Below are positions 268 through 23,151 of a stretch of DNA of 51,145 bases, in pieces (positions within the stretch are counted from its first letter, which is position 1; each line of letters opens with the position of its first letter). Source of the stretch: an uncultured Candidatus Berkelbacteria bacterium (GTDB lineage: Bacteria; Patescibacteriota; UBA1384; CAILIB01). A model generated the notes under the pieces. That model ran no database searches. It was given only the letters and a program-made list of their open reading frames with translations, and was not told the DNA's origin. The position numbers and the translations under genes were made by a program. The stretch lies in the NCBI GenBank assembly GCA_903834195.1, contig CAILIB010000015.1:1-51145 (forward strand). The letters run 5' to 3'.

Positions 268-2484
268 ATGCCTGTTCAATCACCTGAACAATCTGAAAGA
301 GAAAACGACACTCCAGAAGCTGATCAAGAAGAAGTTGATCAGGGGATAGATCAGGCACCTGATCAGGAATTACCTGCACAAAATCTTGCGCCCAATCCGG
401 CTCAACAAGCACCCCAGCCATCACCTCAGCAACCGCCTATACAACAGGGAATTATTGATCAAATTAACGGACCTCAGCAATCTATAATTGATCAAATAGA
501 CACGCCAACCGAGCCATCTGCAGCGATGCGAAATCAGATTGATGGCATTGGGCGAGGTAAAGAACTGGGTAAGAATCCGTCGCGCCTTGAGAGTACTCCT
601 GACGATAAAGCTAGAAATGCACCACTTACTCCGCCGCCAGTTCTGAATAATGATGCACAGCCTACATCAACTGAGACAAACGATTTTTCAAAACCAGATT
701 CAGTCTATAAAGAACCAAATGCAAAACTACCAAATCCTGCCGTTCCAGGTTCAGAAGACGAACTAAAGAAACGTGCATCAGGTGATGACATTAACCCAAG
801 AGCACAGGTCCCTGCATATATTCCTGGTGCTCAAAAACTGAATGATGTAGCTGCTAGAGCTCAGGCTGCCAAGGATAAATACAATAAAACAAAAGAGAAT
901 ATTAATGCAGCTAAAAAAGCCGCAGCGACTGGGGACGTGTCCGAACTAACCAAGCAGGGGGTTCAAAAGATTGTTGGTGACAGTAAAGCTGGACAAGCCT
1001 TAGCTGGAGCAGCTAAGGATGCAGCAGATCTTGCCCAAGTGTTTGAAGGGAATTTCTTAAGAGCGATTCCTATAGTCAAGAAGTACGGTAAACCGCTCGC
1101 AATTCTAGCCCTCATGTTTATCATAGTCTGCAGTGCAATTGGCGCAGGACTATACGAAGCTGTACAGGGTGCTGGAGATGCAAGTGCACTGGTTGGAACT
1201 GGGAATATTATTAGTGGTTCATACTGCCAAGGTATGATGAATTACACTGATGTTCAACAAGGGGGTACTACAACTAGAATCTTTACGAGTGGAACTACTG
1301 GAAAGTTTTCAGAAGAGTCTCCGTTAGATCCAAATACTGGACACATTATTGAACAAGAAAATCCTGGTCCAGTATCTTTTATTGACTACTACATGTCACA
1401 ACCTGCAGATGTACGTGCGCAATGGGCCCCATACTACATTACCGCCCGCTGGCCATACATTGCATCAACTTTTGGGCCTGGTGGTGATAAGAGTGGCCCA
1501 GCGTATCATGAAACTCGTAATGGCTTTGCCGGACTACCAACGTCTAATCTTTACCAAGGAAAGCGCGTCATCATTTTCAGTCCCAAAACCAAAAAGGCTG
1601 TACTGGGCATTATTCTTGAGTTCGGACCTCAACCATGGACAGGATCTGAAGGCCATCCTGCCAGTGAATATAGTCAACAATTAGCCAACTGGAATACAGG
1701 TTCAAGTAATGGATTTCGAATTCAAGATCCACCAGGGTTTATCGAACGTGTTGCGGGTGGACCACCATCATTAGAAAAAGTTCTAGGAATTAATAACCAA
1801 GACACAATTGTGTACGGGTTTGCCCCTCCAGAACTACAGAACACAGCGCCAGGACCAATTAATTGCACTGTTGTTACTGCGGGGAGCGGTCCAACCAACG
1901 GAGCAACCCAACCACTTCCAGTACCACCAACAAACCAGTCGGCCGGCGGGCAATGTGGAATTGCTAGTACTATCTCTGTAGTTCGCTACTACAATCCAGC
2001 ATACAATGACACGGCGTACTATGATGCAGCAAACAACGCAGTTACAAAAGGTGCCACTACACTCTGTGTAAGTCCAAGTTACATTAACGATCACAGCGCT
2101 GGAAAAGTAAGTGATTTCACTCTTGCTACTGTTGAACGAAATAAGGGCTTTCCTACAGCAACATTTGATAACGTTAAACAGTCAGTACTGTCAGGTGACC
2201 CTGTAATTATGTACAGTGCCCCGGACGCCTTCTACCCACCTACCGCACAGTACAATCAACACATCTTTGTTATTACTGGGTATAATGCGAGTACTGATAC
2301 ATTCGACATTATGAGCCCTAACGGAAAAGCAGATATCTTCAACGGTGTGATCGATGGAATAGGTAGTCCAAAGGGTCAGAAAATTACCGCCGACTACCTC
2401 ATGTCTAAGACGACGAATATAGATTCTGCCTACGGAGGACATAGCTTCATGATTCGTAAAAAGTACTTACAAGTTTCGCCGTAA
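268..2484 (+). CDS. Membrane-anchored protein: disordered Q/P/E-rich N-terminus, one TM helix, RlpA-like double-psi beta-barrel, C-terminal C39-like (papain-fold) peptidase domain
   Basis: TM 'LAILALMFIIVCSAIGAGL'; 'KRVIIFSPKTKKAVLGIILEFGP...RVAGGPPSLEKVLG' is DPBB-like; 'QCGIAS...GDPVI...HIFVITGY...IMSP' is C39-like. Confidence 0.65.
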   Translation: MPVQSPEQSERENDTPEADQEEVDQGIDQAPDQELPAQNLAPNPAQQAPQPSPQQPPIQQGIIDQINGPQQSIIDQIDTPTEPSAAMRNQIDGIGRGKELGKNPSRLESTPDDKARNAPLTPPPVLNNDAQPTSTETNDFSKPDSVYKEPNAKLPNPAVPGSEDELKKRASGDDINPRAQVPAYIPGAQKLNDVAARAQAAKDKYNKTKENINAAKKAAATGDVSELTKQGVQKIVGDSKAGQALAGAAKDAADLAQVFEGNFLRAIPIVKKYGKPLAILALMFIIVCSAIGAGLYEAVQGAGDASALVGTGNIISGSYCQGMMNYTDVQQGGTTTRIFTSGTTGKFSEESPLDPNTGHIIEQENPGPVSFIDYYMSQPADVRAQWAPYYITARWPYIASTFGPGGDKSGPAYHETRNGFAGLPTSNLYQGKRVIIFSPKTKKAVLGIILEFGPQPWTGSEGHPASEYSQQLANWNTGSSNGFRIQDPPGFIERVAGGPPSLEKVLGINNQDTIVYGFAPPELQNTAPGPINCTVVTAGSGPTNGATQPLPVPPTNQSAGGQCGIASTISVVRYYNPAYNDTAYYDAANNAVTKGATTLCVSPSYINDHSAGKVSDFTLATVERNKGFPTATFDNVKQSVLSGDPVIMYSAPDAFYPPTAQYNQHIFVITGYNASTDTFDIMSPNGKADIFNGVIDGIGSPKGQKITADYLMSKTTNIDSAYGGHSFMIRKKYLQVSP

Positions 2485-2491
2485 TATTCCA

Positions 2492-3751
2492 ATGGCAGAT
2501 ATCGAACACGCAAATCCATTCGCAAAAAATCGTCGAACAACCCTTGTTCGGAACGTTTTAGGATGGACAATTGCCATCGTAGTGATCGTAGGGGGCTTTG
2601 CCTACTTTACGAGAACCCAACAGAGTTCAATCCTCATTTTAGGATCGACCTCCGATGTGTCCATATCCTTAAATGGCCGAGCTGTACAGGGTAAAAATGA
2701 CCCTCGAGGTATTTCTGTACCTGTTTACTCAGGTGAGTACAGATTGACCCTTACCCGCCCAGATAACGAGCAATTTAGCCAAGATGTGAGCGTGCCGGCC
2801 GGTATTACTGTCTCAATTCGACCTGTCTACACACTGTACACACCACCCTCGTCACCATCCAATTCAAGCAATACAATCGACTACGTTGTTGCAACTCCAG
2901 ACCAAAAAAACATCTACTACCTTGGCGATGACCGAAGTCGGCTATACCGCATGGAAGTTTCCAATCGCTCTGTGATTCCACTCACTCAACAACCGCTTTC
3001 AGGCGTATCAGCAGTGGAGTGGTCAAACGATCCAAGTGTTGCTTTAGTCATACAAACGAATGGAATTTTCTTACAAGAAATTCCAAACTATGACTTCAAA
3101 GGACAACACATTGTCCATGTTGCTGATGACTTTCTCTCACCAAAATGGGACCCAAATGATAACTCGCGCATAGGCGCTGCATACTTTGCTAAGTCGGGTG
3201 AGAAATCACTTGTTCTCGTTGATAAACGTTTTACAACCATTGACCGTAAAGCTGATCTTAGCAACTTCACCAATCCTAAAATTATCTGGTCACCTGATAG
3301 CAAGTACATTGCGGTTATCAATCGTGCAAACGATCCACTCCAGAACAACCTCTGGCTGTACAACCTCTCAACTGGCGAGTTTCGCGCACTGACTTCTGCA
3401 GGTACAGTTCTTGATGCAAGCTTTAGCCCGGGCAGCAATGCAATTTTGTATGAAACCCTGACAAACAATGAACATACCTTACGCGCAAAAAGTGTTGCAA
3501 CGGGAACTGACTTCGCAGTTTCATTCTCAAATACAGTTAAACAAACTGCCTGGAGAGATGATGCAAGTTTTTACACTACAGGAAGTACTAATAACAGCCT
3601 TTCAATACACTCATTGAATGGAGACGCCCAAGATATTACGTACTCTGGACCATCAACAAGCACAATCAGAGGGATGTTCTATTTCAGCAGCTCGCAGACT
3701 TTGGTATTCTATACAGAGAATACAGTTTACACAGTCAGCTTGAACGGTTAG
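2492..3751 (+). CDS. N-terminally anchored PEGA-like domain plus TolB/PD40-like beta-propeller protein
   Basis: N-terminal TM; 'VSISLNG...GEYRLTLTRPD' PEGA-like; repeated 'VEWSND', 'PKWDPN', 'IIWSPDSKYIA', 'ASFSPGSNAILY' blades. Confidence 0.75.
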   Translation: MADIEHANPFAKNRRTTLVRNVLGWTIAIVVIVGGFAYFTRTQQSSILILGSTSDVSISLNGRAVQGKNDPRGISVPVYSGEYRLTLTRPDNEQFSQDVSVPAGITVSIRPVYTLYTPPSSPSNSSNTIDYVVATPDQKNIYYLGDDRSRLYRMEVSNRSVIPLTQQPLSGVSAVEWSNDPSVALVIQTNGIFLQEIPNYDFKGQHIVHVADDFLSPKWDPNDNSRIGAAYFAKSGEKSLVLVDKRFTTIDRKADLSNFTNPKIIWSPDSKYIAVINRANDPLQNNLWLYNLSTGEFRALTSAGTVLDASFSPGSNAILYETLTNNEHTLRAKSVATGTDFAVSFSNTVKQTAWRDDASFYTTGSTNNSLSIHSLNGDAQDITYSGPSTSTIRGMFYFSSSQTLVFYTENTVYTVSLNG

Positions 3752-3776
3752 TAATTCTGCCAGGAACAAAGGGGAT

Positions 3777-4820
3777 ATGGCGAACGACTCAGGAAGTGGA
3801 GGGGGTGGAGGATTAGTTATAGCACTCATTGCGGCTTTTGCTGCAGGTCCTCTTATTATCCTTATCTTACTTGCCATGGGTTTTGCACAAGATGGCCCAA
3901 GTCCAAAAGGCAGTAGTAAACCCCAAACCATTGACCCAGCTCCAACCTCAAAAGATCAGCCGGCCTTAGCAACGTTTGATCGCAGTGTAGACCCAAAAAA
4001 CTGGCTCGCAAAAAATGGGAGTAACTTATCTGATATAAGTACCCAGTTTCAGAACCAGGATAAGGCCATGTCTGATGGCGTAGCATTCGAAGGTGCACCC
4101 GGTGACCGCGTCACTAAGATGAAAGCACAGCTCAAGATTATGATTGCTGACATTACAGCAATCCAACAAGCAAAAGCAGCCTCACCTGACCAGATTAAAA
4201 AAACTGCCAAGCTCATCACTGACTGGGGAGTCTATGACAATCTCCGCATTATCGCCACTGCAGCAACACTTGCAGATCAGGCAATTGCACTTGTAACCCA
4301 AAACAAAAATGGAACTGGGGATATTGCATATATTGCGTCTCGCCCTGTGATTGTAATCAATAACACAGACCCAAAAGGCCTCGACACATCTGGATTCATC
4401 GTATATTCACTTATCAAAACAAGAATATTTCACGGTAACGATCAGCCAAGTGTTGATATGTTTTACACCAGATACAGCACTGATACACGATTTACTCTTG
4501 TTGACTCAGCACTCAATAGCCGGATTGACGACAGCAAAGCACAAGGCGAACTTCAAAAGGGCGACATTGTGCTGACGAGTACTGGAGATGTGAGTAGTGC
4601 TGATAACGCCCAAAACGTAAACCAGGCGTTTATGTATATAGGAGCAGGACATTCTGAGGGCGATGTTGTTGAGTCAACTGTTTCAGGATCAAAGACTGGA
4701 CCTCAGTTCGACACCTTAAACAACCACCTATCCAGCGGAACAGTTGGTGCAAAACAGAAGATCCAGGTCATTCTACGTTTAGCCACTCCTTCACCATCCA
4801 CAACAACTCCTACACTGTGA
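3777..4820 (+). CDS. Membrane-anchored NlpC/P60-fold protein with substituted catalytic residues
   Basis: N-terminal TM; 'GLDTSGFIVY', 'LQKGDIVL', 'QAFMYIG', 'VVES' align to NlpC/P60 'G.DCSG', 'LQPGDLVF', 'HVGIYIG', 'MIHA'. Confidence 0.7.
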   Translation: MANDSGSGGGGGLVIALIAAFAAGPLIILILLAMGFAQDGPSPKGSSKPQTIDPAPTSKDQPALATFDRSVDPKNWLAKNGSNLSDISTQFQNQDKAMSDGVAFEGAPGDRVTKMKAQLKIMIADITAIQQAKAASPDQIKKTAKLITDWGVYDNLRIIATAATLADQAIALVTQNKNGTGDIAYIASRPVIVINNTDPKGLDTSGFIVYSLIKTRIFHGNDQPSVDMFYTRYSTDTRFTLVDSALNSRIDDSKAQGELQKGDIVLTSTGDVSSADNAQNVNQAFMYIGAGHSEGDVVESTVSGSKTGPQFDTLNNHLSSGTVGAKQKIQVILRLATPSPSTTTPTL

Positions 4821-7800
4821 GAATTCTCAGCAAAATAATTTGTTGCATTCTGGTTGAACTCTTATTGGTTAACAGTGCGGCTTTTGCAATTCCACTTGCT
4901 CTCGCAGCATCTTCCAGCACTGATGCGAGCGCATATACACTGACAGGATGCACACTTCCAACTTTCTCAACCACTCCAGTTACGTCTGCAACTGTATCTG
5001 ACCCTGCTCTGGTTGAAGATGTAGCTAGTTCAAGCGTAGTAGGGTTTAACTTGGATTTTGAAGGCGGAGAACCACTCTACAATTCTGGCCAGATAAACAC
5101 AATTCTCCAGTCCTTTTCCAAAACCAACGGGGGAACATTTGATTCAGCTACAAATACGTGGACATTTTGTACTAATCAAAATATGGACCGCCTATTCTCA
5201 GGTATTCCTACAAATTCTACCGAACAGCAGTACCTAGATACACTGCAAGATCCATTACCAAAAATATCGATGAGCGATCTCGATCGCTACGCTATTGAAG
5301 GTGAACCATGTCGACTCTTTATCACTGCCACAGGCCAATGTGACGAAACGCTCGTTCCAGATCTCGATGCTACTGGAAAGCAAAAGCTGAACGATGATGG
5401 CACCCCAGCCATGAAGCCAAAGTATTTCGATGATATTTTTACTGCCGGTGCCTCAAAGAATCACTGGGATGCACCTAAAGCAGATGTTAGAATTCTTAAA
5501 ACATTGGTTTATCTAACCACTCCAACTGATCTTGGAGGTGCGAACCACGAGAGTATTACAGTATCCCGCATCATTCAGACAGCAAACAAAAGCACTGAGA
5601 TTGTCGACCCAACGTTAGCTAGTGAAGATACGAGCCAGATTGCTGCCCATAGCTACGACATGGACAACCCTGAACATCCGGTAAAACTGTCTCAGGCGAT
5701 GGATATTAGTGCGATTGACACACTACGTGTCACAACTCGCGTAACAGAACAACGTCGCGCCTGTATTGGCGGGGGAGGGATCAGTTTTGGAAGTAGCTGT
5801 GATAAAGTAACCTACAACTATTCTGCTAGTCCGATCAAAGTATCATGGCAAACTGACGCAGGTGCTGCACAGTCAAGTGTACCTACTGACCTTTACCACG
5901 GTTCACTCTCTTTGTTTAGCGCAGGTCTTGGCAGCCTGCTCAACGATATGAATTTAAATACTACGATTGATCCTACTAAGATCAGTCTTAGTAACTTAGG
6001 AGATGTGAGCAAACTAATTGGAAGCACACTATTAAGCCAATCACTTAACACTCCTGGAAAATCCATTACTGGATGGGACGCCAATTCTACATTAGATTCT
6101 ATCGGCAGATCATATATTGCGGATCAATTAGGACTTCCTGACGGAGCATTATCAGATGGAAATACCACTGATGATATTACTCAAAATATTGGTGAAACCG
6201 CAGTTGAAAACGCCTATGACCTTCCTCATGGATCACTAAAAGGTGCAACTTCAGCCGACATTTGGACAAATGTAGGTCAACGATACCTTGAAGACGTTCT
6301 TGATATTCAACCTAATACACTTACACCTCAACAATACACAACAGCCGGATTGTTAGAGAAAATTGGTCAAGGCAAAATTGAAAAAGCACTTGCATTACAA
6401 CCTACAAGCTTTAGTTCAAACACGTGGGCCACAGATATTGCACCTGCTAAAAATAGTTCTGAGTTTACTAAAGAAAATGCAGGACATCTCGACGATGTTC
6501 TCGGCATTGGGTTCCAAGATACCAATGGGTCATCCAAAAATGTTAACGGATTTACCCCGGGCGATTTCAACGATGCAACTAAAACGCTTCTAAGTAACCC
6601 AACTCCAGCTGCGGTTTCCAAGTATAAGCAACTTATTGGTAGTCGGACAATCGAAAGTAGCATGGGTCGCTTTACCCCTGGTACAGCTTCTGGATCCACA
6701 GCAAAGGCTGAAACTGCGGCGTTCCTACCTGAAATTCTGTCTGCATTCGGAATTACCCTTTACGCAACTCCATTTGGAGTACCTTCTGGTGAAACATTAC
6801 TCTTTGACACAACCAAAGTTACCGGCGCACGAGTTACCTATGGCGCCACAAGTAATGAGACCACAGAAGCCTTAATTAGCAGTGGTATATATACTCGTGA
6901 TCAGATAATTGCACTCACAAAACAAATTTGTGATCTCATTTCGTCTGAAACACTCATTCCGTTTTCCTCACTTCCGAGAGATCTTCAGACTATATTCCAA
7001 AATGGAAACAAGTTTTCTCCAGCTAACTTCCCACCTACTTCACCTTCACAAGCCCCTCAGACTCTTAATACTGTTCTGACGACCTGGCAAATACCTATTC
7101 AAACACTGTTAAATTCAGTAACCAGCCGATTAAACTCCTCGAGCACTGTTGGAACCAACGAAGATGTTCCTACTCTTTTATCTGCTCAAAAAGCTCTCAG
7201 CACCGCAGTGGGAAGTATTAAACAGTATACTGACGGATTACTTACAACTATTGATATCCAAAATCAGAGCGGGCAAAGTGCTGCGCTGAACCTCCCTGGT
7301 ACCGTCTATGCAAGCAATCCGGATGGGACATTCAACACATCCCAAAAAATTATTTCAAGCGACCCGGTCACTACACTATTGAGTGGCAACCTTACTACTG
7401 GAGAACTTTCTCTTATTGGAAAACTGATAATCACTCAGAAGATTATTCCAGACCGACTTTCACAACGCCTAGCTCTTAGCCAAATAGTACAGAGCGAAAG
7501 CACAACGTATGGCGCATTTAACTCATTTGGTGTTGACCCAGGCAGTTGGACTACTAAAGGTTTCGACGACTACGACTTTGAGCGCATCTTTACTAAAGGA
7601 CTTGCGCAAAATGTATTTGATCGTATTGGCAAACTTCAGTTACTCCAAACAACTTGGAACATAACCAATCTCCAACCTCTTTCTGGACAAGGCTCAGTGA
7701 GCAACTCAGCAATGGACCAGATCAATGTCAAACTAAGCCAGGCAGCAAGTGGCTATGCGTTTTATAAAAATGACTTTGATCTATTAAAAAGTGCTATCAC

Positions 7801-10800
7801 TGAGCTCATTAATGGATTAAGCGGTTCAGACAATCTAAAAACTGCGCTAAAGGCGATTGGAGACACGACTACAACACTCTCAATCGGTGGTATTCGTGAC
7901 GCTGCACAAAAATACGAGGTTATTCTTAATAATCCTGCACTCAAAAAGGCAACCGGCGCCACACAAAGTAGCCTCAGTAAAGCCACACCACTCGTACAAG
8001 AGCTAATTGCAGGACACCCTCTCTCTTTCAGTCAAACTGCTGAAGTATCACAATCGGGGACGAACAGCTCTCCTCAAGCCAATAAGAATGCTGACGGATG
8101 TCTTGTTGTGGGAACATTCCGAGACATGATCAGTAATAACCAAGATATTAGCTCACTCATCAAATCGAGTGCTGGTTGTCGTGTTGATGATGCCTTCAAC
8201 CTTCCTGTCGGCTCGATGACTGTCTGGATAAACTCTAATGACAATTCATATAACGGTTTTGCAAAAGCAATTGGAACTTCATTAGAGAAAAATAATACCA
8301 CCCAAATTAGTGATAGTGATTTAGCAGCAGAGGGGAATAAAATTGTTAGTTCAAACTCAGTAAGCTCACTTACTGCTGGAATTCCAGGCGCTGGAGTTGG
8401 TGGTGGATTTAAGGCACAAGACGTGTTCAATGTTCTCAGTGGATATGCAAGTAACACACTCGAGAAAATGGGTACCACAATGGTAGATAACTACCTGAAC
8501 TGGGACACCGGGACTGCCGAAACGCTCGTTAATCCTCGCTGTACTGATCAAACCACCCAAACTATTACTTCATGTGGTCGCACCGACGCAAGTACTAAGC
8601 GTACTCAGGTGATGGCAACCATGGGATTAAAAGAGCTTGGCGATGCACTTAACTTCCCAACTAGCCTCACGCTCAGTTCTTCTCAAAGTTTTGTAAAAAG
8701 CTTTGGCAACGCACGTATTAGTGAAATTCTCGGCTTAGCACAAAACAGTTTTACCGGCTCATTCAAGAATATTATTGCTGCAAACGCAGGCCACCTCGAT
8801 AATCTCCTCAATAGTCTTTCTTGGTACCAAAATCCAGAAATCCGCAATCTTCAAGATATTCAACGATCTCTTCAAGGATATGTAGACGGCAACGGCACTG
8901 TTGGGGATCAATCAAGCGTAGCGGCCGCCCAATCTACATTAACTAGTGTAAGTTCATCACTCGACTCGTTTTACAACACAGTCCTTGGTACCATTACTGA
9001 CCCAGGAAGTAGTGTGTATGGAAAAGATACTACTGCCACAGGAACAACAGCTGACACGATCACAACAGCTGAAGCAAAAGCTGTATCATCGAGCATTTCT
9101 CAGCTCAAGAGTCTTTCCCAAAACTCCTCAATCGGTGATGATCTGCGCAATCAACTTGATGGTACACAACAATCACTCACTTCATCCGGTATCGGGAGTG
9201 ACTCGTGGAACACAAAAGAAAAATCTGCAGTACTTCTTCAGATGTCGAGTTACACAAATCGAATCGGCAGTCTTGGTTCACAATTAGGTGTTTCAGGTGA
9301 TGCATTCCAAAAACTTATTACCGGATCGTTAGACGGCGACTCTATCTCAGTAACAGAAGCAGATAAAGATATTACAAACTCACTTGTTTCAACAGCTACG
9401 AACAAGCTTCTCGCAAACACTCCTTTTGCCAGTTTAACTGATACATTCACAGCGCTTACAAAAGGCCCTGGATGTGACCGTGGGGTTGGATTTAAGGACT
9501 TTCTCCTCGGAACCGGCCCAGATACCGACTTGTCTGATATGTCGAACTGGGGATGTTCTAGTGAAACACTTGGTTCAACAAGTCTTTCTTCATTACTTAC
9601 AGGAAGTGACACAACTTCTACCACATTACGCACCAATCTCTACGACCACCTCCTTAGTCGCAGCTTCGGAATGAATGTCGAGAAAAAGTTGAACTTTGAA
9701 CCTGGAACTATTCGTGCAATTTTCCTCAATCCTTGGGAAGCAAAAGATATTGCCATTGACCAAGGTATCCGTACGATTGGTGCACAAATGCTGAACTTAA
9801 ATTCTCAAGCAAAATTCTCATCTGCCGAAGCTGGCATCTTTAATGGTTTTCGAAACTCGATTATGGCTGGGTTCTGCCCGGTAAATCCGCTTGCTGATTT
9901 GTCTGATTCTCAGAAGAACCAGAGTAAATCGAGTATTGGAATGTGTTCACTCAATTTCAACTCAACCCGTGCACTCGGTGCATTTGAAGGCAGTCTAAAC
10001 CAGGTTCTCGATGACGAACTTAAGAATGGTGGTGGAACAGGTCATAATATTGGACTAACTGACCTTGCAGTAGCATTTGCAGGTGGAATGGATGGCATAT
10101 ATTACCTTGGTGCTGCCGAGATCGCTAAGAATCTCAACATTACCCTTGGAAGCGGCTCAGGTTCTCAAAAGTTTAAGATCAACTTTACTGATATTCGTAA
10201 TGCTTTCGGCGGAACAGCTCTCAGTTCGCAAGACTTGAGCAATGCAGCTCAAACACAACAATCCGACTTCGTCCGAAACTATTACGTCCAATCTGGCTAT
10301 GACCCTTCAACCTTTGATAATGGTGCTGGGGGCATCATTGATATGGGCGGAATGAGCAATCAACAGGTGCTCAACATCTTCAACTCTGATCCGAATATTT
10401 CAAGTACTCAGCGAAGTTACTTGTTAGATACCCAAGCTGGAGTTGGTCAATCGAATGCATCACAGCAAATAAAAGAAGGTGCTCAGCTTCGCCTTCAGTA
10501 TCAGTCGTACGATGCTGCTGCGTACAAACTTGATCCTAATATTCCACAAGGATTTAGCTACGCCATGTTGCGAGGCACTAGTACTGACCGGGCACACTAC
10601 CTTGGCCTATACCTTGCAAATACACTAAACTTCTCCAAGAATCTCTTCGGCGGTTCTGGATTAACCAATGAAATGCTGGTTAATCTTTCCCAATACGCCA
10701 TCACATGTTTCACCGCAAACAGTGGTGCAACATGTAATCAAAGCCTAGTAACTCCACAGAGCCTCGGCCTCCTGGACAAATGGTTTGATGGCCAAGCTGG

Positions 10801-11989
10801 AAAGCTTCTCGGCATTGATTTACCTGCCGGAACTGTTCAAGGAATATTTGCCTGGGGAAGTACAGGGTTCAAAGGAAACACCTTTGATACCAGCAATACG
10901 TACCAAGTTGGCGGAGGTAGCTATGCTCCACTCGGTACAGTCTTACGAACATGGGCGATGAGTAAACTGTTCGGCTGGGCGGACAAAATGCTCGGATTTG
11001 ACCCTGGTACAGTTCTGAGTCTATATCAGGCAGCAAGCCAACTAATCCAGGCACAACAAGCATTAAGTGTGGCCGAATCTTCAGCGCCAGCAGTTAACTC
11101 TGTTGGATCAATCTTCGGCAACCCTGATTTGGGAACTCAAAATGTTGATGCAGCACAGGCTAACCTCGTAGCCGCGCAAGCTGCTGTCGTAAGTACGGTG
11201 ATCAACATAGCCTTCAAGAGCCAGATCGCTGATGCTGAAAAATCACTCGGCCTCGTACCTGGAACTGGGGCGCTCGGAGTGAGCATATTGGTCTGTCTTG
11301 CCATGGGAGCACCAGTTGCACCGCTCACTATCGCACTATTTGTCGCCATCAACCTATTTGGTACCTATAACGTAAAAATTGATGCACGGGCTAGTGGAAG
11401 TGGATACTATCCGTACAAAGGACATTACGGCAGTAATACAGTTGATCCATATCAATTCCCAACAACCAGTGTTCCTGACCTTGGTTCATTTGATGTACAG
11501 AACAGTACTTCCTACCACGCTGGAATCGAAGCTGCAGCTCAAGCTCACGTATATTCACTCCTTCGCGACCTCCTTACCATGCCTGCTCGCTGGCAAGCAG
11601 CAACAGGTCAAAGTGGAAATTCTGTTTGGATTTCTCAGATTTACACTGCCCGTAAAGAAGATGCGGATAACTTAAATGATCTTGTTTCTCAGCCAGCACC
11701 ATGGGAAAACACTGGCGGGTTCGGGTACGGCAGTCTAGAATCACGCGCAAATGTTGCCTACAACAACGCAACTGGAACCTTTGTTGCTAATCCAGACCCA
11801 GGATACCGCGCAGGACTCTTCTACTGTCTTCCATCTGGATCAGGCAATGGTGCCGCCACAAGCAGCAATGCAAATGGCAATGCAAGCACCAGCCCAACTG
11901 CAGCCACAAGCTCAGGTAGTGCAACCCCTGCAGCAGCGACCGCACAAACTTCCTGTGCATTCACCGACCACATCCACCTCCGCTGGTAA
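4817..11989 (+). CDS. Giant (2390 aa) exported S/T/G-rich protein with internal helical repeats, Cys pairs, a near-C-terminal hydrophobic segment and M15-like motifs at both ends
   Basis: GTG start overlapping the upstream stop (GTGA); signal-peptide-like N-terminus; uninterrupted 7.2-kb ORF. Confidence 0.8.
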   Translation: MRILSKIICCILVELLLVNSAAFAIPLALAASSSTDASAYTLTGCTLPTFSTTPVTSATVSDPALVEDVASSSVVGFNLDFEGGEPLYNSGQINTILQSFSKTNGGTFDSATNTWTFCTNQNMDRLFSGIPTNSTEQQYLDTLQDPLPKISMSDLDRYAIEGEPCRLFITATGQCDETLVPDLDATGKQKLNDDGTPAMKPKYFDDIFTAGASKNHWDAPKADVRILKTLVYLTTPTDLGGANHESITVSRIIQTANKSTEIVDPTLASEDTSQIAAHSYDMDNPEHPVKLSQAMDISAIDTLRVTTRVTEQRRACIGGGGISFGSSCDKVTYNYSASPIKVSWQTDAGAAQSSVPTDLYHGSLSLFSAGLGSLLNDMNLNTTIDPTKISLSNLGDVSKLIGSTLLSQSLNTPGKSITGWDANSTLDSIGRSYIADQLGLPDGALSDGNTTDDITQNIGETAVENAYDLPHGSLKGATSADIWTNVGQRYLEDVLDIQPNTLTPQQYTTAGLLEKIGQGKIEKALALQPTSFSSNTWATDIAPAKNSSEFTKENAGHLDDVLGIGFQDTNGSSKNVNGFTPGDFNDATKTLLSNPTPAAVSKYKQLIGSRTIESSMGRFTPGTASGSTAKAETAAFLPEILSAFGITLYATPFGVPSGETLLFDTTKVTGARVTYGATSNETTEALISSGIYTRDQIIALTKQICDLISSETLIPFSSLPRDLQTIFQNGNKFSPANFPPTSPSQAPQTLNTVLTTWQIPIQTLLNSVTSRLNSSSTVGTNEDVPTLLSAQKALSTAVGSIKQYTDGLLTTIDIQNQSGQSAALNLPGTVYASNPDGTFNTSQKIISSDPVTTLLSGNLTTGELSLIGKLIITQKIIPDRLSQRLALSQIVQSESTTYGAFNSFGVDPGSWTTKGFDDYDFERIFTKGLAQNVFDRIGKLQLLQTTWNITNLQPLSGQGSVSNSAMDQINVKLSQAASGYAFYKNDFDLLKSAITELINGLSGSDNLKTALKAIGDTTTTLSIGGIRDAAQKYEVILNNPALKKATGATQSSLSKATPLVQELIAGHPLSFSQTAEVSQSGTNSSPQANKNADGCLVVGTFRDMISNNQDISSLIKSSAGCRVDDAFNLPVGSMTVWINSNDNSYNGFAKAIGTSLEKNNTTQISDSDLAAEGNKIVSSNSVSSLTAGIPGAGVGGGFKAQDVFNVLSGYASNTLEKMGTTMVDNYLNWDTGTAETLVNPRCTDQTTQTITSCGRTDASTKRTQVMATMGLKELGDALNFPTSLTLSSSQSFVKSFGNARISEILGLAQNSFTGSFKNIIAANAGHLDNLLNSLSWYQNPEIRNLQDIQRSLQGYVDGNGTVGDQSSVAAAQSTLTSVSSSLDSFYNTVLGTITDPGSSVYGKDTTATGTTADTITTAEAKAVSSSISQLKSLSQNSSIGDDLRNQLDGTQQSLTSSGIGSDSWNTKEKSAVLLQMSSYTNRIGSLGSQLGVSGDAFQKLITGSLDGDSISVTEADKDITNSLVSTATNKLLANTPFASLTDTFTALTKGPGCDRGVGFKDFLLGTGPDTDLSDMSNWGCSSETLGSTSLSSLLTGSDTTSTTLRTNLYDHLLSRSFGMNVEKKLNFEPGTIRAIFLNPWEAKDIAIDQGIRTIGAQMLNLNSQAKFSSAEAGIFNGFRNSIMAGFCPVNPLADLSDSQKNQSKSSIGMCSLNFNSTRALGAFEGSLNQVLDDELKNGGGTGHNIGLTDLAVAFAGGMDGIYYLGAAEIAKNLNITLGSGSGSQKFKINFTDIRNAFGGTALSSQDLSNAAQTQQSDFVRNYYVQSGYDPSTFDNGAGGIIDMGGMSNQQVLNIFNSDPNISSTQRSYLLDTQAGVGQSNASQQIKEGAQLRLQYQSYDAAAYKLDPNIPQGFSYAMLRGTSTDRAHYLGLYLANTLNFSKNLFGGSGLTNEMLVNLSQYAITCFTANSGATCNQSLVTPQSLGLLDKWFDGQAGKLLGIDLPAGTVQGIFAWGSTGFKGNTFDTSNTYQVGGGSYAPLGTVLRTWAMSKLFGWADKMLGFDPGTVLSLYQAASQLIQAQQALSVAESSAPAVNSVGSIFGNPDLGTQNVDAAQANLVAAQAAVVSTVINIAFKSQIADAEKSLGLVPGTGALGVSILVCLAMGAPVAPLTIALFVAINLFGTYNVKIDARASGSGYYPYKGHYGSNTVDPYQFPTTSVPDLGSFDVQNSTSYHAGIEAAAQAHVYSLLRDLLTMPARWQAATGQSGNSVWISQIYTARKEDADNLNDLVSQPAPWENTGGFGYGSLESRANVAYNNATGTFVANPDPGYRAGLFYCLPSGSGNGAATSSNANGNASTSPTAATSSGSATPAAATAQTSCAFTDHIHLRW

Positions 11990-11998
11990 ACGACGTAT

Positions 11999-13519
11999 AT
12001 GAGCAACTCATTCGACTCCACAATCCAGCGTATTAACCGACAGACAGAAGAGCAAGCCGCCGAAGCACTCGCGAGTCAACAAGGTTTAAATTATGAAAAA
12101 CTAGACGACTACCCATTTAGTCTCGATGTACTTTCTTTAGTTGATTTGGCAGAAGCAACTCAAAAACAGTATGCACCATACCTCTTAACTAAGGATCAGG
12201 TTAAGATTGCAATTGTTCATCCAGAAAACGCCTTGGTACGTGATGAGATCGTTCTCTTTGGTCGCAAACATAATCTCGCAGTAGAAGAGGCCGTTGTATC
12301 TGGAACGAGCTTTAAGTTACTCCTCGCTTCATGGGCACGTCTTATCGAGGAAAAGAAACAGGGTGAAATCTCTCAAGTTGAAAGTGAGAAGCAAAAAGCT
12401 GAACACGATTACGTCGCCAAGATTAAAACGCTTGAGGATTTACAAAAAGAAGTTGCAACGGTAAGCACTACCGAGTTAATTGATGTTATTGTTGCCGCAG
12501 CAATGAACCAGGGCGCCTCTGATATTCACCTTGAACCAGAGGCTGAAACAATGACTGTTCGATTCCGAGTTGATGGAGTATTACAACGAGTGCTTCAACT
12601 CCCAATGACTCAGCATCACCACCTGATTTCACGTATTAAAATTCTGGCGCACATCAAAATTGACGTACATGGACTGAGTCAAGATGGTCGCTTCAGTATG
12701 AAAGACAAGGGAATAAACGTTGATGTACGTGTTTCAATTGTTCCGACTGGGTATGGGGAAGGGGTGGTAATGCGCTTACTCCACCAGGACGTTGAATCAG
12801 CAACCTTAGAGGCACTCGGATTTTCACCGTATAATTTGGCACTTATTGAAAAAGCAATTCGTCGACCATACGGGTTAATCCTTGTAACAGGTCCTACTGG
12901 TTCAGGTAAATCAACCACACTGTATGCAATCCTACAAAAGTTAAATACGACTGAAAAAAAGATTATCACCTTAGAAGACCCAATTGAGTACCGCATCCCA
13001 GGTGTGCAACAGAGTCAAATTGATGCAGATCACGGCTTTACCTTTGCCGAAGGATTAAAAGGTGCCCTGCGCCAAGACCCTGACATTGTTATGGTGGGTG
13101 AAATACGTGACCCAGAAACAGCCACAATCGCCCTGAACGCGTCTTTAACCGGTCACTTAGTACTTTCTACCCTTCACACCAATGACGCCATTACGGCCCA
13201 CACACGCTTTTTGGAGCTTGGGGTTGAGCCATTCCTCTTAGCGGGGAGTATTAATATGATTATTGCTCAACGACTAGTGCGCACACCTGTGCCAGGGAGC
13301 GACCCTGCAAACCCTACATATAAGGGGAGAACAGTTATTGCTGAGGTGCTTTGTCCTACTCAAGAATTTGAACGCGCTGTTACAAATCACGCGGATCAGA
13401 GTACGTTGCAGGAGCTTGCGATTAAAGGTGGAATGATTCCTATGCTTAAGGATGGTATGGATAAGGTTAAAGAGGGGAAGACGAGCGAGAGCGAGATTTA
13501 CCGTGTGACGGTGGTTTAG
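11999..13519 (+). CDS. pilB: PilB/GspE-family type IV pilus/type II secretion ATPase
   Basis: 'ASDIHLEP', 'RFRVDG', Walker A 'GPTGSGKSTT', Asp box 'TLEDPIEY', 'LRQDPDIVMVGEIRD', His box 'GHLVLSTLHTND'. Confidence 0.92.
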   Translation: MSNSFDSTIQRINRQTEEQAAEALASQQGLNYEKLDDYPFSLDVLSLVDLAEATQKQYAPYLLTKDQVKIAIVHPENALVRDEIVLFGRKHNLAVEEAVVSGTSFKLLLASWARLIEEKKQGEISQVESEKQKAEHDYVAKIKTLEDLQKEVATVSTTELIDVIVAAAMNQGASDIHLEPEAETMTVRFRVDGVLQRVLQLPMTQHHHLISRIKILAHIKIDVHGLSQDGRFSMKDKGINVDVRVSIVPTGYGEGVVMRLLHQDVESATLEALGFSPYNLALIEKAIRRPYGLILVTGPTGSGKSTTLYAILQKLNTTEKKIITLEDPIEYRIPGVQQSQIDADHGFTFAEGLKGALRQDPDIVMVGEIRDPETATIALNASLTGHLVLSTLHTNDAITAHTRFLELGVEPFLLAGSINMIIAQRLVRTPVPGSDPANPTYKGRTVIAEVLCPTQEFERAVTNHADQSTLQELAIKGGMIPMLKDGMDKVKEGKTSESEIYRVTVV

Positions 13520-14559: not shown

Positions 14560-14997
14560 TCAACAAAGACTATCCATTATTCCCAGGAACTGCGTTGGAG
14601 TTACAACCTGAACATCTCGGTATACACCTAAAATAAGCAGATCTTTATCGCCACTAATAATATATGTACATCCGCCTAGGATTGCAGTTTCAAGAACTTT
14701 ATTATCATCAGGATCTCGACTAGCCTCAACTGTTACTGAACCGAGCGCCACCATAGTAGTGTCCTCCCGAATAGAGGCCTCAAGTAAGGTTAGCTTGGGA
14801 ATAAACAAGGGAAATTTTTGAGTAATCTTCCGTCTTAGCTCACTCAACAACTCCTCGCTTACAACTACGATAATTTCTCCATGAATAAAGCGCTCAAGAA
14901 CCGTACCCGGAGAACCTACAAAAACGAGTCCGGATATCCAAACGTTCGTATCTATCACAACTCGAGGAACCTCTTTGTGTCGTCGAGGTTTAGTCAT
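14560..14997 (-). CDS. PIN-domain (VapC-like) toxin
   Basis: 'RVVIDTNVWISGL...ELLSEL...SRDPDDNKVLETAI...IISGDKDLL...VVTP' PIN motifs; start overlaps the antitoxin stop. Confidence 0.9.
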   Translation of the reverse strand: MTKPRRHKEVPRVVIDTNVWISGLVFVGSPGTVLERFIHGEIIVVVSEELLSELRRKITQKFPLFIPKLTLLEASIREDTTMVALGSVTVEASRDPDDNKVLETAILGGCTYIISGDKDLLILGVYRDVQVVTPTQFLGIMDSLC

Positions 14998-15217
14998 TGA
15001 GTAAATCGTAGACCTGTTCTTCACTGGTAATATTCATTACTTCACCAACTTTCCGCCCTGCAGTCATTAGGTCTGTCCAGCGGGCACGCCGTTCAAGGTC
15101 TGCGAGAGCTAAGCGACGAAAATACTCACTTCGACTGCCGAAGTCTTTTTTAACAGCTTGATCGATTTGTTCAAGAAGCACCGTGTCGAGTGCAATGTTT
15201 AGAGTTTTAGTTGCCAT
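14990..15217 (-). CDS. Ribbon-helix-helix (CopG-like) antitoxin
   Basis: 'TKTLNIALDTVLLEQIDQAVK...SRSEYFRRL' RHH pattern directly upstream of the PIN gene. Confidence 0.85.
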   Translation of the reverse strand: MATKTLNIALDTVLLEQIDQAVKKDFGSRSEYFRRLALADLERRARWTDLMTAGRKVGEVMNITSEEQVYDLLND

Positions 15218-21669: not shown

Positions 21670-21698
21670 TGTGGATAACTCTTTACACATGTGGATAA
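21670..21698. promoter_or_regulatory. Two perfect DnaA boxes upstream of dnaA
   Basis: TGTGGATAA at 21670 and 21690 within an acatgtggataact direct repeat; a third at 21900 inside dnaA. Confidence 0.9.
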
Positions 21699-21762
21699 CT
21701 TTTGTACCCTTATAACCAAGCGGGCACGAGCCCATTTTTTAACGCCACTAACTGCCCCTACA

Positions 21763-23151
21763 ATGACCGAGGAACAGCTATCCTCAACCTGGAAAATGAC
21801 ACTTAAGCAGATGGAAGGGGCATTCCCATCTGCGATTTATAAAAGTGTCTTCGGAACGAGCTCACTCAAGGGAGTATCTGGTGATATTGCAGAGGTAACT
21901 GTGGATAACCAGGTAGCCCGAAACTTCGTCAGTAAGTACGCTGAAGAGAAGCTTCTAAAGAACTTAAGTGAAGTTCTAGGAGCACCTATTACTCAAGCAC
22001 GGTACACGATTAAACCGGTCGCCAAGGAAGCAAAAAATATTAAATCGCACACTGAAAAAGGGGAGGAGTTATTCCACTCAAACAAGAACCATTCTTTGGA
22101 ACCAAACCAAAATCTGAGTTCAAATTTGAACCCGAAGTACACCTTTAGTAGTTTTATTGTTGGTAATCGTAACCGACTTGCTCACGCTGCTGCTCGCGCA
22201 GTTGCTGAAAGCCCTGGTAATTTATACAATCCTCTTTACTTATATGGTGGTGTGGGATTAGGTAAAACCCACCTCATGCAAGCGATTGGGAATGAAATTC
22301 TTCGCACCAACCCTGAGAAAAAAGTATTGTACGTTTCTTGTGAAAGTTTCATGAACGAGTTTGTTGCTAGTATTCGTGGGGCTGGCCAGGAAGCTTTTAA
22401 GAAGAAGTACCGCAATATAAACGTCTTTCTTGTAGATGATATTCAATTCATCGCTGGAAAAGATGGTATTCAGGAAGAATTCTTTCACACCTTCAACGCA
22501 CTTTACCAAACTAATGCGCAGATCGTCATTACTTCAGATATTATCCCATCTGAAATGAAGGGGTTGGAAGATCGCCTCTCAAGTCGATTTAGCGCTGGAA
22601 TGATTGCTGACATGCAGTTGCCAGATTTAGAAACCCGTCAGGCAATCCTTATTTCAAAGTGCCAAGAGCGCGGTATTATTCTCCCAAACGAAGCAATTAC
22701 GTATATTGCTGATCAAATTGATACAAACATTCGAGAATTAGAAGGGGCACTTAGTAGAGTCGTCCTGGCCATTCACGCATCGGGAAATACCCATCCATCC
22801 CTTAATGATGTTAAAACGGCGTTAACAGGCATTATCTCCACAAATAGACCCTCTAAGAAAAGCTCGGCACAGTCACTTATGGATCTTGTGTGTCAGTTTT
22901 ATAGTATTGAGCTCGCTGACCTCCTTGGCCCTCGTCGCCAACAAGAGCTTGTGCGCCCTCGTCAAATTCTCATGTATCTCTTGAAACATGAACTTGGTAT
23001 GACATTTCCGGCGATTGGCCGTGAAGTAGGTGGACGCGATCACACTACTGCAATGCACTCAGTTGATAAGATTGAGAAAGAAATGAAAAAATCACCTGAG
23101 CTATTAGAAGAACTTCAACATTTAAAAGAACAATTGTATACGGTCAAATAA
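21763..23151 (+). CDS. dnaA: Chromosomal replication initiator DnaA
   Basis: 'LNPKYTFSSFIVG', 'YNPLYLYGGVGLGKTHL', 'VDDIQF', 'NIRELEGAL', 'GGRDHTT'; likely ATG at 21763. Confidence 0.98.
   Translation: MTEEQLSSTWKMTLKQMEGAFPSAIYKSVFGTSSLKGVSGDIAEVTVDNQVARNFVSKYAEEKLLKNLSEVLGAPITQARYTIKPVAKEAKNIKSHTEKGEELFHSNKNHSLEPNQNLSSNLNPKYTFSSFIVGNRNRLAHAAARAVAESPGNLYNPLYLYGGVGLGKTHLMQAIGNEILRTNPEKKVLYVSCESFMNEFVASIRGAGQEAFKKKYRNINVFLVDDIQFIAGKDGIQEEFFHTFNALYQTNAQIVITSDIIPSEMKGLEDRLSSRFSAGMIADMQLPDLETRQAILISKCQERGIILPNEAITYIADQIDTNIRELEGALSRVVLAIHASGNTHPSLNDVKTALTGIISTNRPSKKSSAQSLMDLVCQFYSIELADLLGPRRQQELVRPRQILMYLLKHELGMTFPAIGREVGGRDHTTAMHSVDKIEKEMKKSPELLEELQHLKEQLYTVK

Follow-up and report, generated by a model that had tools for sequence, protein, structure and literature searches.

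A giant protein of a putative Patescibacteria type IV secretion locus whose two ends probably form one composite LAS/M15-type domain

Results

The giant gene and its product

The window, by which we mean the whole stretch of 51,145 nucleotides analysed here (contig CAILIB010000015.1 of an uncultured Candidatus Berkelbacteria bacterium, an ultra-small member of the CPR/Patescibacteria), carries a gene for a protein of giant size, whose features and neighbours are listed in Table 1. The start retained for this gene matches the N-terminus of a relative, P0003 (38% identical), and the whole protein gave no match in Pfam or NCBIfam. The N-terminal hydrophobic segment would be cleaved after its Ala-x-Ala site.

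Table 1. The giant gene, the parts of its product and the surrounding genes in the window
Feature	Position (nt)	Strand	Description or basis
Three same-strand upstream genes	268..4820	+	738 aa, C39_2-like papain-fold; 419-aa beta-propeller; 347 aa, no match
Giant ORF, 2,390 aa	4817..11989	+	GTG start; overlaps the preceding ORF's stop by 4 nt
Hydrophobic signal or anchor, aa 1-33, '...AIPLALAASSS'	4817..4915	+	Hydropathy scan, mean 2.47
N-terminal domain, aa about 212-352	5450..5872	+	AlphaFold2 model, conservation, VIA-align
His278	5648..5650	+	Counterpart of the His in S-x-H-x2-G-x-A-x-D
Asp296	5702..5704	+	Counterpart of the Asp of the motif; followed by invariant Asp301
Middle region, aa 369-2142	5921..11242	+	No known family (no Pfam match)
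Hydrophobic hairpin (putative), aa 2143-2183	11243..11365	+	'LGLVPGT' to 'NLFGTY' (both conserved), 'GAPVAP' break mid-way
C-terminal domain, aa 2186-2390	11372..11986	+	AlphaFold2 model, predicted interface
Asp2384-His2385-Ile2386-His2387	11966..11977	+	Includes the conserved His (His2387) at -4 from the C-terminus
PilB/GspE-type ATPase gene	11999..13519	+	Pfam T2SSE, E = 7e-111; NCBIfam GspE/PilB
dnaA	21691-23151		
dnaN	23526-24638		
recF	24638-25669		

The N-terminal domain (AlphaFold2 model, mean pLDDT 74.5) runs from a helix, DVRILKTLVYL, to a strand, ITVSR, then to the site with His278 and Asp296, a long beta-hairpin and the invariant PIKVSWQ. The C-terminal domain (mean pLDDT 79.1, pTM 0.70) is modelled as an alpha/beta fold with one long helix; it is made, in order, of SGSGYYPY, the long helix AAAQAHVYSLLRDLL, ISQIYTARKED, RAGLFY, a low-complexity linker and a terminal strand. 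A sequence-only reading of this DNA had proposed that strings near the two ends of the protein are the halves of one M15/LAS-like peptidase domain. All of these strings are in the translation: KADVRILKTLVYL (Asp223 at nt 5483), ITVSRI, AAHSY and SQAMDISAID at the N-terminal side, with the histidine placed at 5648 being His278 (nt 5648-5650), and HVYSLLRDLLTMP, ISQIYT, GLFY and FTDHIHLRW followed by a stop at the other.

The same reading took the middle for a repeat region, and there it was not borne out: self-BLAST detected no internal repeats in the middle region at E <= 0.01, and the idea of a tandem-repeat array was dropped. A short motif, G-x3-h-[ED]-x2-L-x-L-x2-G-[ST], is present there in 9 copies, against 3.1 expected in shuffled sequences (maximum 10). 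In the relatives, the hydrophobic stretch preceding the C-terminal domain measures from 25 to over 60 residues and has a Pro/Asp break. As a length down to about 25 residues and such a break both fit a hairpin that enters and leaves on one side, the stretch may well bring the chain back to the side of the membrane from which it came, and the 2 to 5 cysteines found in 61 of the 75 C-terminal domains were counted in favour of this topology.

The giant gene probably belongs to a type IV secretion locus

The PilB/GspE-type ATPase gene starts 10 nt downstream of the giant ORF, and dnaA lies 9.7 kb downstream; in another locus of the family (L039), the giant gene is followed, at about 7 kb, by a PilB-like gene. 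Of 23 related loci, 21 have a VirB4-like gene within about 14 kb upstream of the giant (18 on the same strand, 3 divergent), and 2 have none. In two of these loci, L001 and L003, it is recognised by the Pfam model P-loop_TraG. Between virB4 and the giant gene lie hydrolase genes (M15_4, VanY plus glucosaminidase, or M23) and a beta-propeller gene, and in L071, a same-family genome, homologues of both the propeller and the C39-like protein occupy this interval. When the neighbours in the window were compared by BLAST with L001-L003, the beta-propeller was matched and nothing else. The contig begins about 4.5 kb upstream of the giant gene, so that the link to virB4 is out of view in the window itself; VirB4-like fragments are present elsewhere in the same genome, at the edge of one contig (C24) and on another (C19). 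Patescibacteria type IV secretion (T4SS) loci are described as often near dnaA in PMC12102498. On the strength of the upstream VirB4-like gene in 21 of 23 loci, the giant protein is most likely a hitherto overlooked component of the type IV secretion locus (MPF-FATA-like) of Patescibacteria. No Pfam or NCBIfam match to the named T4SS components VirB1, VirB6, VirB8 and PrgB was found in it.

A family of giants with conserved ends

A word-index search for homologues returned 2 relatives only, and the N- and C-terminal regions were the best conserved parts of these sole full-length relatives. The others were found by exhaustive HMMER search, which brought the family to 90 cluster representatives, 75 of them complete members; its short matches were fragments. 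A metagenome scan for the family returned 2 loci only.

At the aligned N-terminal position, the M15 signature S-x-H-x2-G-x-A-x-D is exact in 44 of the 75 complete members, and 18 more have a form extended between His and Asp. The window's protein is of the second kind: its own site is atypical, with H-x17-D against the canonical H-x6-D, because of an 11-residue, clade-specific insertion (YDMDNPEHPVK...) inside an otherwise canonical signature (alignment A3). The sequence-only reading had remarked that this spacing is longer than the canonical one, which is thereby borne out and traced to the insertion. The column of His278 holds a histidine in 64 of 75 members by script count, and is nearly invariant as column H87 of alignment A3 (at least 90% of 28 rows), as is the Asp column in the same 28 rows; over the complete members, the column of Asp296 has an Asp in 65 of the 75 and a Glu in 3. 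No conserved histidine follows the aspartate within the N-terminal domain in alignment A3.

At the other end of the protein, a histidine stands at -4 from the C-terminus in 64 of 75 complete members, among which are all 62 members with the canonical (44) or extended (18) His-to-Asp form. The N-terminal histidine, the aspartate and one of the two C-terminal histidines singled out beforehand are conserved in homologues, and the observation behind the sequence-only reading is real: its motifs are more than chance. The "final HxH strand" that it had expected did not hold for the family, since no more than 11 of 75 members have an H-x-H pair and the conserved residue is the second histidine of HIH, His2387. 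An acidic residue at -7 combined with His at -4 ([DE]-x-x-H) is found in 18 of 75, so that a catalytic base of this kind is not universal in the family, and the last residue is F, W or Y in 75 of 75. The distance from the Asp to the C-terminal His is 2,091 residues for the window's protein, with a range of 1,577 to 2,809 across the family, so that homologues with inserts of different length do exist. A contiguous, short form of the domain was sought in the family and none was found, the smallest Asp-to-His gap being 1,577 residues.

Predicted co-folding of the two ends

The two ends (aa 195-368 and aa 2186-2390) were modelled as a complex of two separate chains, along with three controls. The model scored ipSAE values of 0.84, 0.80 and 0.85, against 0.00 for the best control (0.00 for 3 of 3 controls). 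The tool states that 58 of 80 solved complexes, and 2 of 110 mismatched pairs, attain this ipSAE mark, a calibration which is rough here, our own alignment having been supplied. Between 237 and 269 contacts were predicted, with a partner pLDDT of at least 67 and agreement between runs in at least 78% of contacts. The pLDDT of the N-terminal domain was 59-63 with the C-terminal partner, against 36-46 with unrelated partners. No solved complex of like kind was found by sequence search.

The predicted interface joins the most conserved residues of the two ends: W344, Q345 and P339-340 with A2241 and K2244, and D296 with H2387. The contacts Asp296-His2387, with an expected error of 0.4 A, and Ile297-Ile2386 are among those of least error. 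At the level of the model, this suggests that the third ligand is His2387, placed beside Asp296 in the fold. It had been proposed that the two halves fold together, in which case His, Asp and His should converge. The ipSAE values against the controls speak for the proposal, but most of the C-terminal domain (aa 2186-2340) does not correspond to half of a LAS domain, and only its last 8 residues or so supply the missing LAS element. As to the convergence, Asp296 touches His2387 in the model, but His278 is absent from the confident interface residues. The interpretation as a whole is thus partly supported.

Since the model was built from two separate chains, the result is blind to whether the two ends meet in cis or in trans. 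We regard it as rather improbable that the composite LAS-derived domain pairs in trans, the N-terminal domain of one molecule taking the C-terminal domain or strand of another. Such pairing would give head-to-tail oligomers, as a ring or fibre at the T4SS, comparable to donor-strand complementation in chaperone-usher pili. The C-terminus does supply a terminal beta-strand, closing an intramolecular loop over a separation of 1,577-2,809 residues would be entropically costly, and PMC12102498 reports no PrgB-like adhesin or other surface fibre for the Patescibacteria T4SS. The hydrophobic hairpin just ahead of the C-terminal domain nevertheless points to membrane tethering of each copy, which is more in keeping with a base domain or a ring than with a long fibre. 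Improbable, too, is the more specific proposal that the composite site is an intermolecular, zinc-locked clasp building a head-to-tail ring or fibre round the Patescibacteria T4SS.

The two histidines tend to be lost together

The N-terminal histidine is absent in 11 of the 75 members, and 9 of these 11 have lost the C-terminal histidine as well. P0003, the nearest relative of the window's protein, has both histidines replaced (Phe and Tyr). Two rows lost the C-terminal His alone, and 2 lost the N-terminal site alone. A tree made with no more than the middle region places changes of the N-terminal His on 3 branches, and in all 3 independent pairs the C-terminal His shifts in the same direction; with 3 independent events only, the sign test gives p = 0.25. 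Since the 11 members without the N-terminal His keep both domains, a catalytic role would be dispensable in some lineages.

These data bear on the possibility that the two ends do not interact at all, the co-fold being a modelling artefact and the terminal aromatic motif (...H-I-G-F or ...H-L-R-W) a sorting or anchoring signal comparable to the beta-signal. An aromatic F, W or Y ending is frequent in outer-membrane beta-barrel proteins, and the invariably aromatic last residue of the 75 giants is what such a signal would look like; moreover, ipSAE is the model's own confidence and no measurement. We nevertheless hold this to be very improbable, as all three controls scored 0.00, the contact pairs join the most conserved residues of both ends, the N- and C-terminal His are lost together, and the C-terminal domain is modelled as alpha/beta with one long helix and no barrel. 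For these reasons the outer-membrane beta-signal was dropped as an account of the C-terminus. CPR bacteria are regarded as having no outer membrane.

Likeness to LAS/M15 enzymes

VIA-align of the N-terminal model gave 27 matches, among which were 7 LAS enzymes, all aligned on model residues 25-109: VldE (9flh, 2.8), the Zn DD-peptidase of Streptomyces albus (1lbu, 2.6), VanXYg (4muq, 2.4), two Hedgehog domains (6rmg and 2ibg, 2.2 each), and two phage endolysins, Ply500 (2vo9, 2.2) and LysB4 (6akv, 2.1). With hhalign, the N-terminal domain matched a 12-row alignment of Patescibacteria VanY at the motif (P = 4.4e-4 over 18 columns). Joining the C-terminal tail to the N-terminal profile returned the same 18-column match with no extension, and the C-terminal domain alone gave P = 0.59 against the VanY alignment, a reference of the M15B subfamily which may be the wrong one for this comparison. 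Peptidase_M15_3, with 2 loci only in 151 genomes, offered too few sequences for a profile. When 28 N-terminal domains were scanned singly, sub-threshold matches were obtained to VanY (3 members, best E-value 0.015), Peptidase_M15_4 (1 member, 0.048) and Peptidase_M15_2 (1 member, 0.18).

Other searches were negative. The curated M15 cut-offs of Pfam and NCBIfam were reached by neither the whole protein nor either domain, and Pfam searched at E <= 10 with P0003, P0004 and the two domains of the window's protein returned no relevant family. PDB sequence searches with the N-domain sequence, the N-domain profile and the C-domain profile found nothing better than E = 0.6, and Foldseek against the PDB gave no match at E <= 0.001 for either domain model (best E for the N-terminal domain 2.9). 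The C-terminal domain modelled alone had no LAS likeness and no clear structural relative, and a search of the ESM Atlas with the N-terminal domain gave no usable match.

The giants resemble the LAS/M15 enzymes (1lbu, 4muq, 2vo9, 6akv) in the signature itself, in a later histidine as presumed third ligand, which in some giants comes as [DE]-x-x-H or H-x-H, in the helix-strand-His...Asp part of the model that aligns to these structures, and in an extracytoplasmic, cell-wall-related setting. They differ from them in that the domain is not contiguous, whereas the enzymes have one domain of roughly 100-200 residues; in the H-x17-D of the window's clade and the lack of any Pfam M15 match at threshold; and in about 150 further C-terminal residues of no known fold within the composite globule. 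The N-terminal signalling domain of Hedgehog (6rmg, 2ibg) has the LAS fold and retains the zinc site without a clear peptidase use. It is a precedent for a LAS site serving in structure or binding, although it is eukaryotic, compact and contiguous, and its sequence likeness to the giants is limited to the ligand pattern.

These results could also be read as a two-piece, co-folded domain that is no kin of LAS/M15, the motif and the terminal His being convergent or a structural metal site in an adhesin or scaffold of the T4SS. No LAS family was significantly matched by sequence or by Foldseek, the order of strands after the Asp (long hairpin, PIKVSWQ, then a separate 150-aa C-terminal domain) is unlike that of compact LAS domains, and genuine M15/M23 hydrolases are already encoded next door. 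We find this unlikely: 7 LAS enzymes from at least 4 families among 27 matches, all on the same part of the model, would be hard to obtain by chance, 44 of 75 members match the 10-residue signature without deviation, and the weak Pfam matches are mostly to M15-type families.

Discussion

We consider it probable that the window encodes a secreted, membrane-tethered giant of a T4SS cluster whose two ends form one composite LAS/M15-type domain. The N-terminal domain would contribute His278 and Asp296, the opening portion of a metal site of LAS/M15 type, derived from S-x-H-x2-G-x-A-x-D and bearing the 11-residue insertion of the clade. About 1,800 residues of unrelated sequence would follow, after which the hydrophobic hairpin would lead the chain back to the external side of the membrane. 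Here the C-terminal domain of 205 aa would pack on the N-terminal domain, with its last strand beside the strand of Asp296, and would bring the missing third ligand, His2387, four residues from the C-terminal end, preceded by Asp2384. One composite globule would thus be built at the membrane from both ends, with the middle looped out from the cell surface.

The composite site presumably binds zinc. Catalysis is predicted with less confidence, as a possibility somewhat short of even. At the foot of a surface structure associated with the T4SS, the giant would most likely cut or bind the stem peptides of peptidoglycan, in a VirB1-like job, while its looped-out part would reach towards the host cell; the metal site would also clasp the two ends of the giant together. 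The membrane topology, the looped-out middle and the cellular role are those that we infer from the features assembled above.

If the model is true, a single chain builds a catalytic-type metal site from residues that lie some 2,100 positions from each other, and this split site is shared by a family with 75 or more giant members. Insertions into domains are nothing unusual, but one whose length exceeds that of the host domain ten to twenty times is extreme. It would also explain why the domain databases are blank on these giants, each half alone falling below every threshold. Full-text literature searches, the supplementary tables of PMC12102498 aside (lists of virB4 neighbours, which may include these genes unannotated), found a description neither of the family nor of a split M15/LAS domain. 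Were the clasp to operate in trans instead, it would represent a new kind of strand-and-ligand complementation, and might be the "missing" adhesin or pilus of host-dependent bacteria, with loops of roughly 1,800 residues reaching the host cell.

A large, conserved and previously unnamed component would be added to the Patescibacteria T4SS locus. VirB1-type hydrolases are proteins of 300-900 aa in which a lytic transglycosylase or muramidase is combined with CHAP or NlpC/P60 domains. Like the giant, those of pCF10 (PrgK), pIP501 (TraG) and ICEBs1 (CwlT) are encoded in virB4 clusters and are expected to open the cell wall; the giant differs from them by its 2,390 aa and by a candidate site which is M15-like and split, and its clusters already contain separate M15_4, VanY or M23 genes. 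According to PMC12102498 and work cited there, the Patescibacteria T4SS is essential for epibiotic growth in the one species tested. The same paper mentions no adhesin and few VirB1-type hydrolases for this system, VirB1 homologues being rare in Patescibacteria and other hydrolases possibly filling the role. The giant is a concrete candidate for both the adhesin and the VirB1-type roles.

As regards the former, no sequence relation links the giant to PrgB-type adhesins or to the giants of CPR bacteria such as Vampirococcus lugosii, Pfam and NCBIfam detected no adhesin domains in it, and a two-ended composite domain is undescribed for either group. It does share with them a very large size, secretion, tethering to the membrane and association with a cell-contact system, and PMC8080830 describes giant proteins of 1,392-4,163 aa, located at the membrane, in a predatory CPR bacterium.

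The giant protein and its relatives

The window holds a single long ORF, whose 2,390-residue product (hereafter the giant) matched no Pfam or NCBIfam family in any part. The strings quoted from its two ends by the sequence-only reading all stand in its translation where they had been placed. A word-index search returned 2 relatives, and an exhaustive HMMER search with residues 195-430 as query returned 90 cluster representatives at E ≤ 0.001 (44 at ≤ 1e-10, 13 at ≤ 1e-30), nearly all 2,000-3,300 aa long. Relatives in named records belong to Candidatus Berkelbacteria and other Patescibacteria. Of 401 sampled Patescibacteria genomes, 26 matched a profile built from the N-terminal domain: 2/2 in the window's family, 16/21 in the rest of its class, 7 elsewhere, plus the window's own genome (1.13 Mb, 46 contigs). 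Full-text literature searches returned neither an account of this family nor one of a split M15/LAS domain, and the accessible text of PMC12102498, PMC8080830, PMC10187176 and 10.1101/2025.01.14.632903 describes neither.

Features of the giant, its predicted interface and its gene neighbourhood (nucleotides of the window unless another contig or locus is named)
Feature	Location	Strand	Remark
Giant ORF	4817-11989	+	GTG start overlaps preceding stop
Hydrophobic signal or anchor	aa 1-33		N-terminal start; hydropathy
Hydrophobic stretch	aa 2143-2183		only one besides the N-terminal; hydropathy
His278 codon	5648-5650	+	
Asp296 codon	5702-5704	+	
Interface, first strand	aa 2186-2201		against aa 304-306
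Interface, long helix	aa 2233-2262		against Pro340, Trp344, Gln345
Interface, last eight residues			against aa 291-298
738-aa protein	268-2484	+	Peptidase_C39_2-like papain-fold domain, aa 550-684, E = 2.8e-10
PilB/GspE ATPase	11999-13519	+	starts 10 nt past giant ORF
PIN_3-domain gene	14560-15024	-	E = 2e-18
dnaA, dnaN, recF	21691-25669		9.7 kb downstream of giant ORF
VirB4-like gene	G000 C24:2-778	-	cut by contig start
VirB4-like frame	G000 C19:30784-31854	-	two in-frame TGA codons
PilB-like gene	L039 24600-26390		~7 kb downstream of its giant gene
ORF upstream of virB4	L001 3591-4394		
ORF upstream of virB4	L003 2257-3234		
Two-motif ORF	L035 (G069:C2:73381-76602)		just downstream of giant gene

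Candidate metal ligands at the two ends

For motif counts, 75 of the 91 proteins with the Asp column were kept, as they have the family C-terminal motif. Among the 16 set aside, 12 are fragment-like (383-1,849 aa), P0020 and P0065 have a different C-terminal end, and P0023 and P0033 have a few residues beyond a His-less C-terminal motif and lack the N-terminal His too, so that they would enlarge the class having lost both. With the N-terminal domains aligned and the C-terminal ends read off, the exact M15 signature S-x-H-x2-G-x-A-x-D was found in 44 of the 75, and the same His and Asp at wider spacing in 18. The giant's own spacing is H-x17-D, longer than canonical as had been noted from the sequence, with an 11-residue insertion plain in the alignment of 28 N-terminal domains. 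In all 62 of these members a His stands at -4 from the C-terminal end, in the forms ...W-T-H-I-G-F or ...D-x-x-H-L-R-W. The giant ends in ...C-A-F-T-D-H-I-H-L-R-W, and its conserved His is therefore His2387, the second of 'HIH'. A final HxH had been proposed; its second His is conserved, but the pair occurs in just 11/75 members ([DE]-x-x-H in 18/75). The distance from Asp to C-terminal His ranges from 1,577 to 2,809 residues over the 75 members (median 2,256), meaning that homologues with inserts of different length, which that reading had suggested looking for, do exist, and that none among the 75 has a short one.

The N-terminal His is absent in 11/75 members, 9 of which lack the C-terminal His as well, while 62 of the 64 that retain the first keep the second (Fisher test, p = 2e-8, on rows related by descent). 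On a FastTree tree of the middle region alone (1,398 columns, neither end domain included), three branches show a change of the N-terminal His: that of P0003 (sister to the window), that of a clade of 9, and that of P0085. In 3/3 independent pairs the C-terminal His changes alongside, which is below significance for want of events (sign test, p = 0.25). Two relatives, P0011 and P0095, lost the C-terminal His alone, and two others, P0026 and P0029, lost the N-terminal His and the Asp and kept the C-terminal His.

Likeness to the LAS fold

Modelled alone (mean pLDDT 74.5), the N-terminal domain runs helix, short strand, His...Asp segment, long hairpin. Foldseek found no structural match for this model. 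VIA-align returned seven LAS enzymes, all on model residues 25-109 (aa 216-300), ending just past Asp296; we take the matched ranges of these entries to hold their own His-x6-Asp pairs and to end ahead of the last His. Each match is weak singly, and the weight lies in their concentration in one superfamily. An hhalign profile-profile comparison with 12 Patescibacteria VanY domains aligned the 18 motif columns only (P = 4.4e-4, probability 33%). Scanned singly, the 28 N-terminal domains gave sub-threshold matches to DUF5715 and VanY (3 members each), to Peptidase_M15_4, Extensin-like_C and Peptidase_M15_2 (1 each), and to four unrelated families (1 each); DUF5715 and Extensin-like_C presumably belong to the Pfam clan of M15. 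The C-terminal domain alone was modelled with pLDDT 79.1 and pTM 0.70, and no resemblance of this model to any known structure was found. The models suggest that the N-terminal domain contains the LAS portion as far as the strand with the Asp and that the protein's last strand would supply the missing His, with ~150 further C-terminal residues as an extra module packed on the N-terminal hairpin. This departs slightly from the two halves of one LAS domain first proposed.

Predicted co-folding of the two ends

A two-chain model of residues 195-368 and 2186-2390, each with its own slice of the 75-row alignment, gave ipSAE values of 0.84, 0.80 and 0.85, compared to 0.00 for the best of three controls. 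The tool's calibration has 58 of 80 solved complexes reaching this mark, along with 2 of 110 mismatched pairs; these counts are only rough here because our own alignment was used. At least 78% of contacts were common to runs, partner pLDDT was at least 67, and pLDDT of the N-terminal domain was 59-63 with its partner versus 36-46 with unrelated ones. The predicted interface has 237-269 contacts and involves three C-terminal-domain elements; pairs with least expected error (0.4 Å) include Asp296-His2387 and Ile297-Ile2386. Sequence searches found no solved complex of like kind, so that the score is unlikely to reflect a solved complex already known to the predictor. Co-folding of the two ends, which the sequence-only reading had put forward, is thus supported by a model, short of demonstration: the scores and the Asp296-His2387 contact favour it, but His278 falls outside the confident interface residues.

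In the best-supported reading the two ends would build a single composite LAS-like metal site on the surface of the membrane, with the middle of the protein looped out. We consider such a composite site fairly probable, and pairing of the two ends in trans, between molecules, unlikely. Peptidase activity of the predicted site is possible but somewhat doubtful, since some lineages dispense with the site, the giant's spacing is atypical, and genes for real M15 and M23 enzymes lie close by. For the composite site, a structural zinc clasp like that of Hedgehog would be a serious alternative role.

Topology and middle region

The hydrophobic stretch ahead of the C-terminal domain is flanked by conserved 'LGLVPGT' and 'NLFG.Y'. 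Across the family it spans 25 to >60 residues and is broken midway by Pro, Gly or Asp, which fits a hairpin returning the chain to its side of origin rather than a single span. C-terminal domains have 2-5 cysteines in 61/75 members (Cys2337 and Cys2380 in the giant). From the broken stretch and the cysteines, we infer that the C-terminal domain would be extracytoplasmic and share a side of the membrane with the N-terminal domain. The middle had been called a repeat region. This is too strong a term, as self-BLAST found no internal repeats at E ≤ 0.01 and the motif G-x3-h-[ED]-x2-L-x-L-x2-G-[ST] occurs 9 times in the giant for 3.1 expected, with shuffles reaching 10. The motif is commoner in two relatives (13 in P0004 and 11 in P0005, versus a shuffle maximum of 7 in each).

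Gene neighbourhood

The best-supported reading of the giant is a membrane-tethered component of a type IV secretion system (T4SS). In 23 loci of relatives, inspected over up to 14 kb upstream of the giant gene (L001, L003, L039, L068-L087), a VirB4-like gene was found in 21 (same strand in 18, divergent in 3) and was absent from the upstream sequence of L077 and L079. The ATPase matches Pfam P-loop_TraG, and CagE_TrbE_VirB weakly. Other upstream genes encode cell-wall hydrolases (glucosaminidase+VanY, Peptidase_M15_4, M23) and a beta-propeller, the usual order being ~300-aa protein, VirB4, hydrolase, propeller, M23- or C39-like protein, giant. Directly upstream of virB4, 21/23 loci have a conserved ORF of ~240-390 aa without Pfam match, possibly a T4SS membrane component.

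In the window the order is 738-aa C39_2-like protein, beta-propeller, 347-aa protein, giant, PilB/GspE ATPase. Its own virB4 is out of view because the contig begins 4.5 kb upstream of the giant gene. Locus L071, from the window's own family, encodes VirB4, a propeller homologue (E = 2e-100 to the window's), a homologue of the 738-aa protein, then the giant; the 738-aa protein may be this cluster's cell-wall hydrolase. Elsewhere in the window's genome (G000), a VirB4-like gene is truncated where contig C24 begins, an edge that might adjoin the beginning of the window's contig, and a second VirB4-like frame, on C19, represents a broken copy or else some oddity of reading. The PilB genes here and in L039 hint at a link of type IV pilus genes with this T4SS cluster.

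According to the accessible text of PMC12102498, the T4SS of Patescibacteria are kin to monoderm conjugation systems, often near dnaA, lack both a relaxase and a PrgB-like adhesin, and have few homologues of VirB1. The giant's gene context matches that description; giant proteins go unmentioned in that text ('giant' and 'large protein', 0 occurrences).

As side observations, the ORF beside the giant gene of locus L035 has two S-x-H-x2-G-x-A-x-D motifs and is another M15-type protein. The window includes the replication origin region, with dnaA, dnaN and recF, and its PIN_3-domain gene is placed between that region and the pilB cluster. Cumulative GC skew along the whole window is lowest at ~14-18 kb and increases thereafter.
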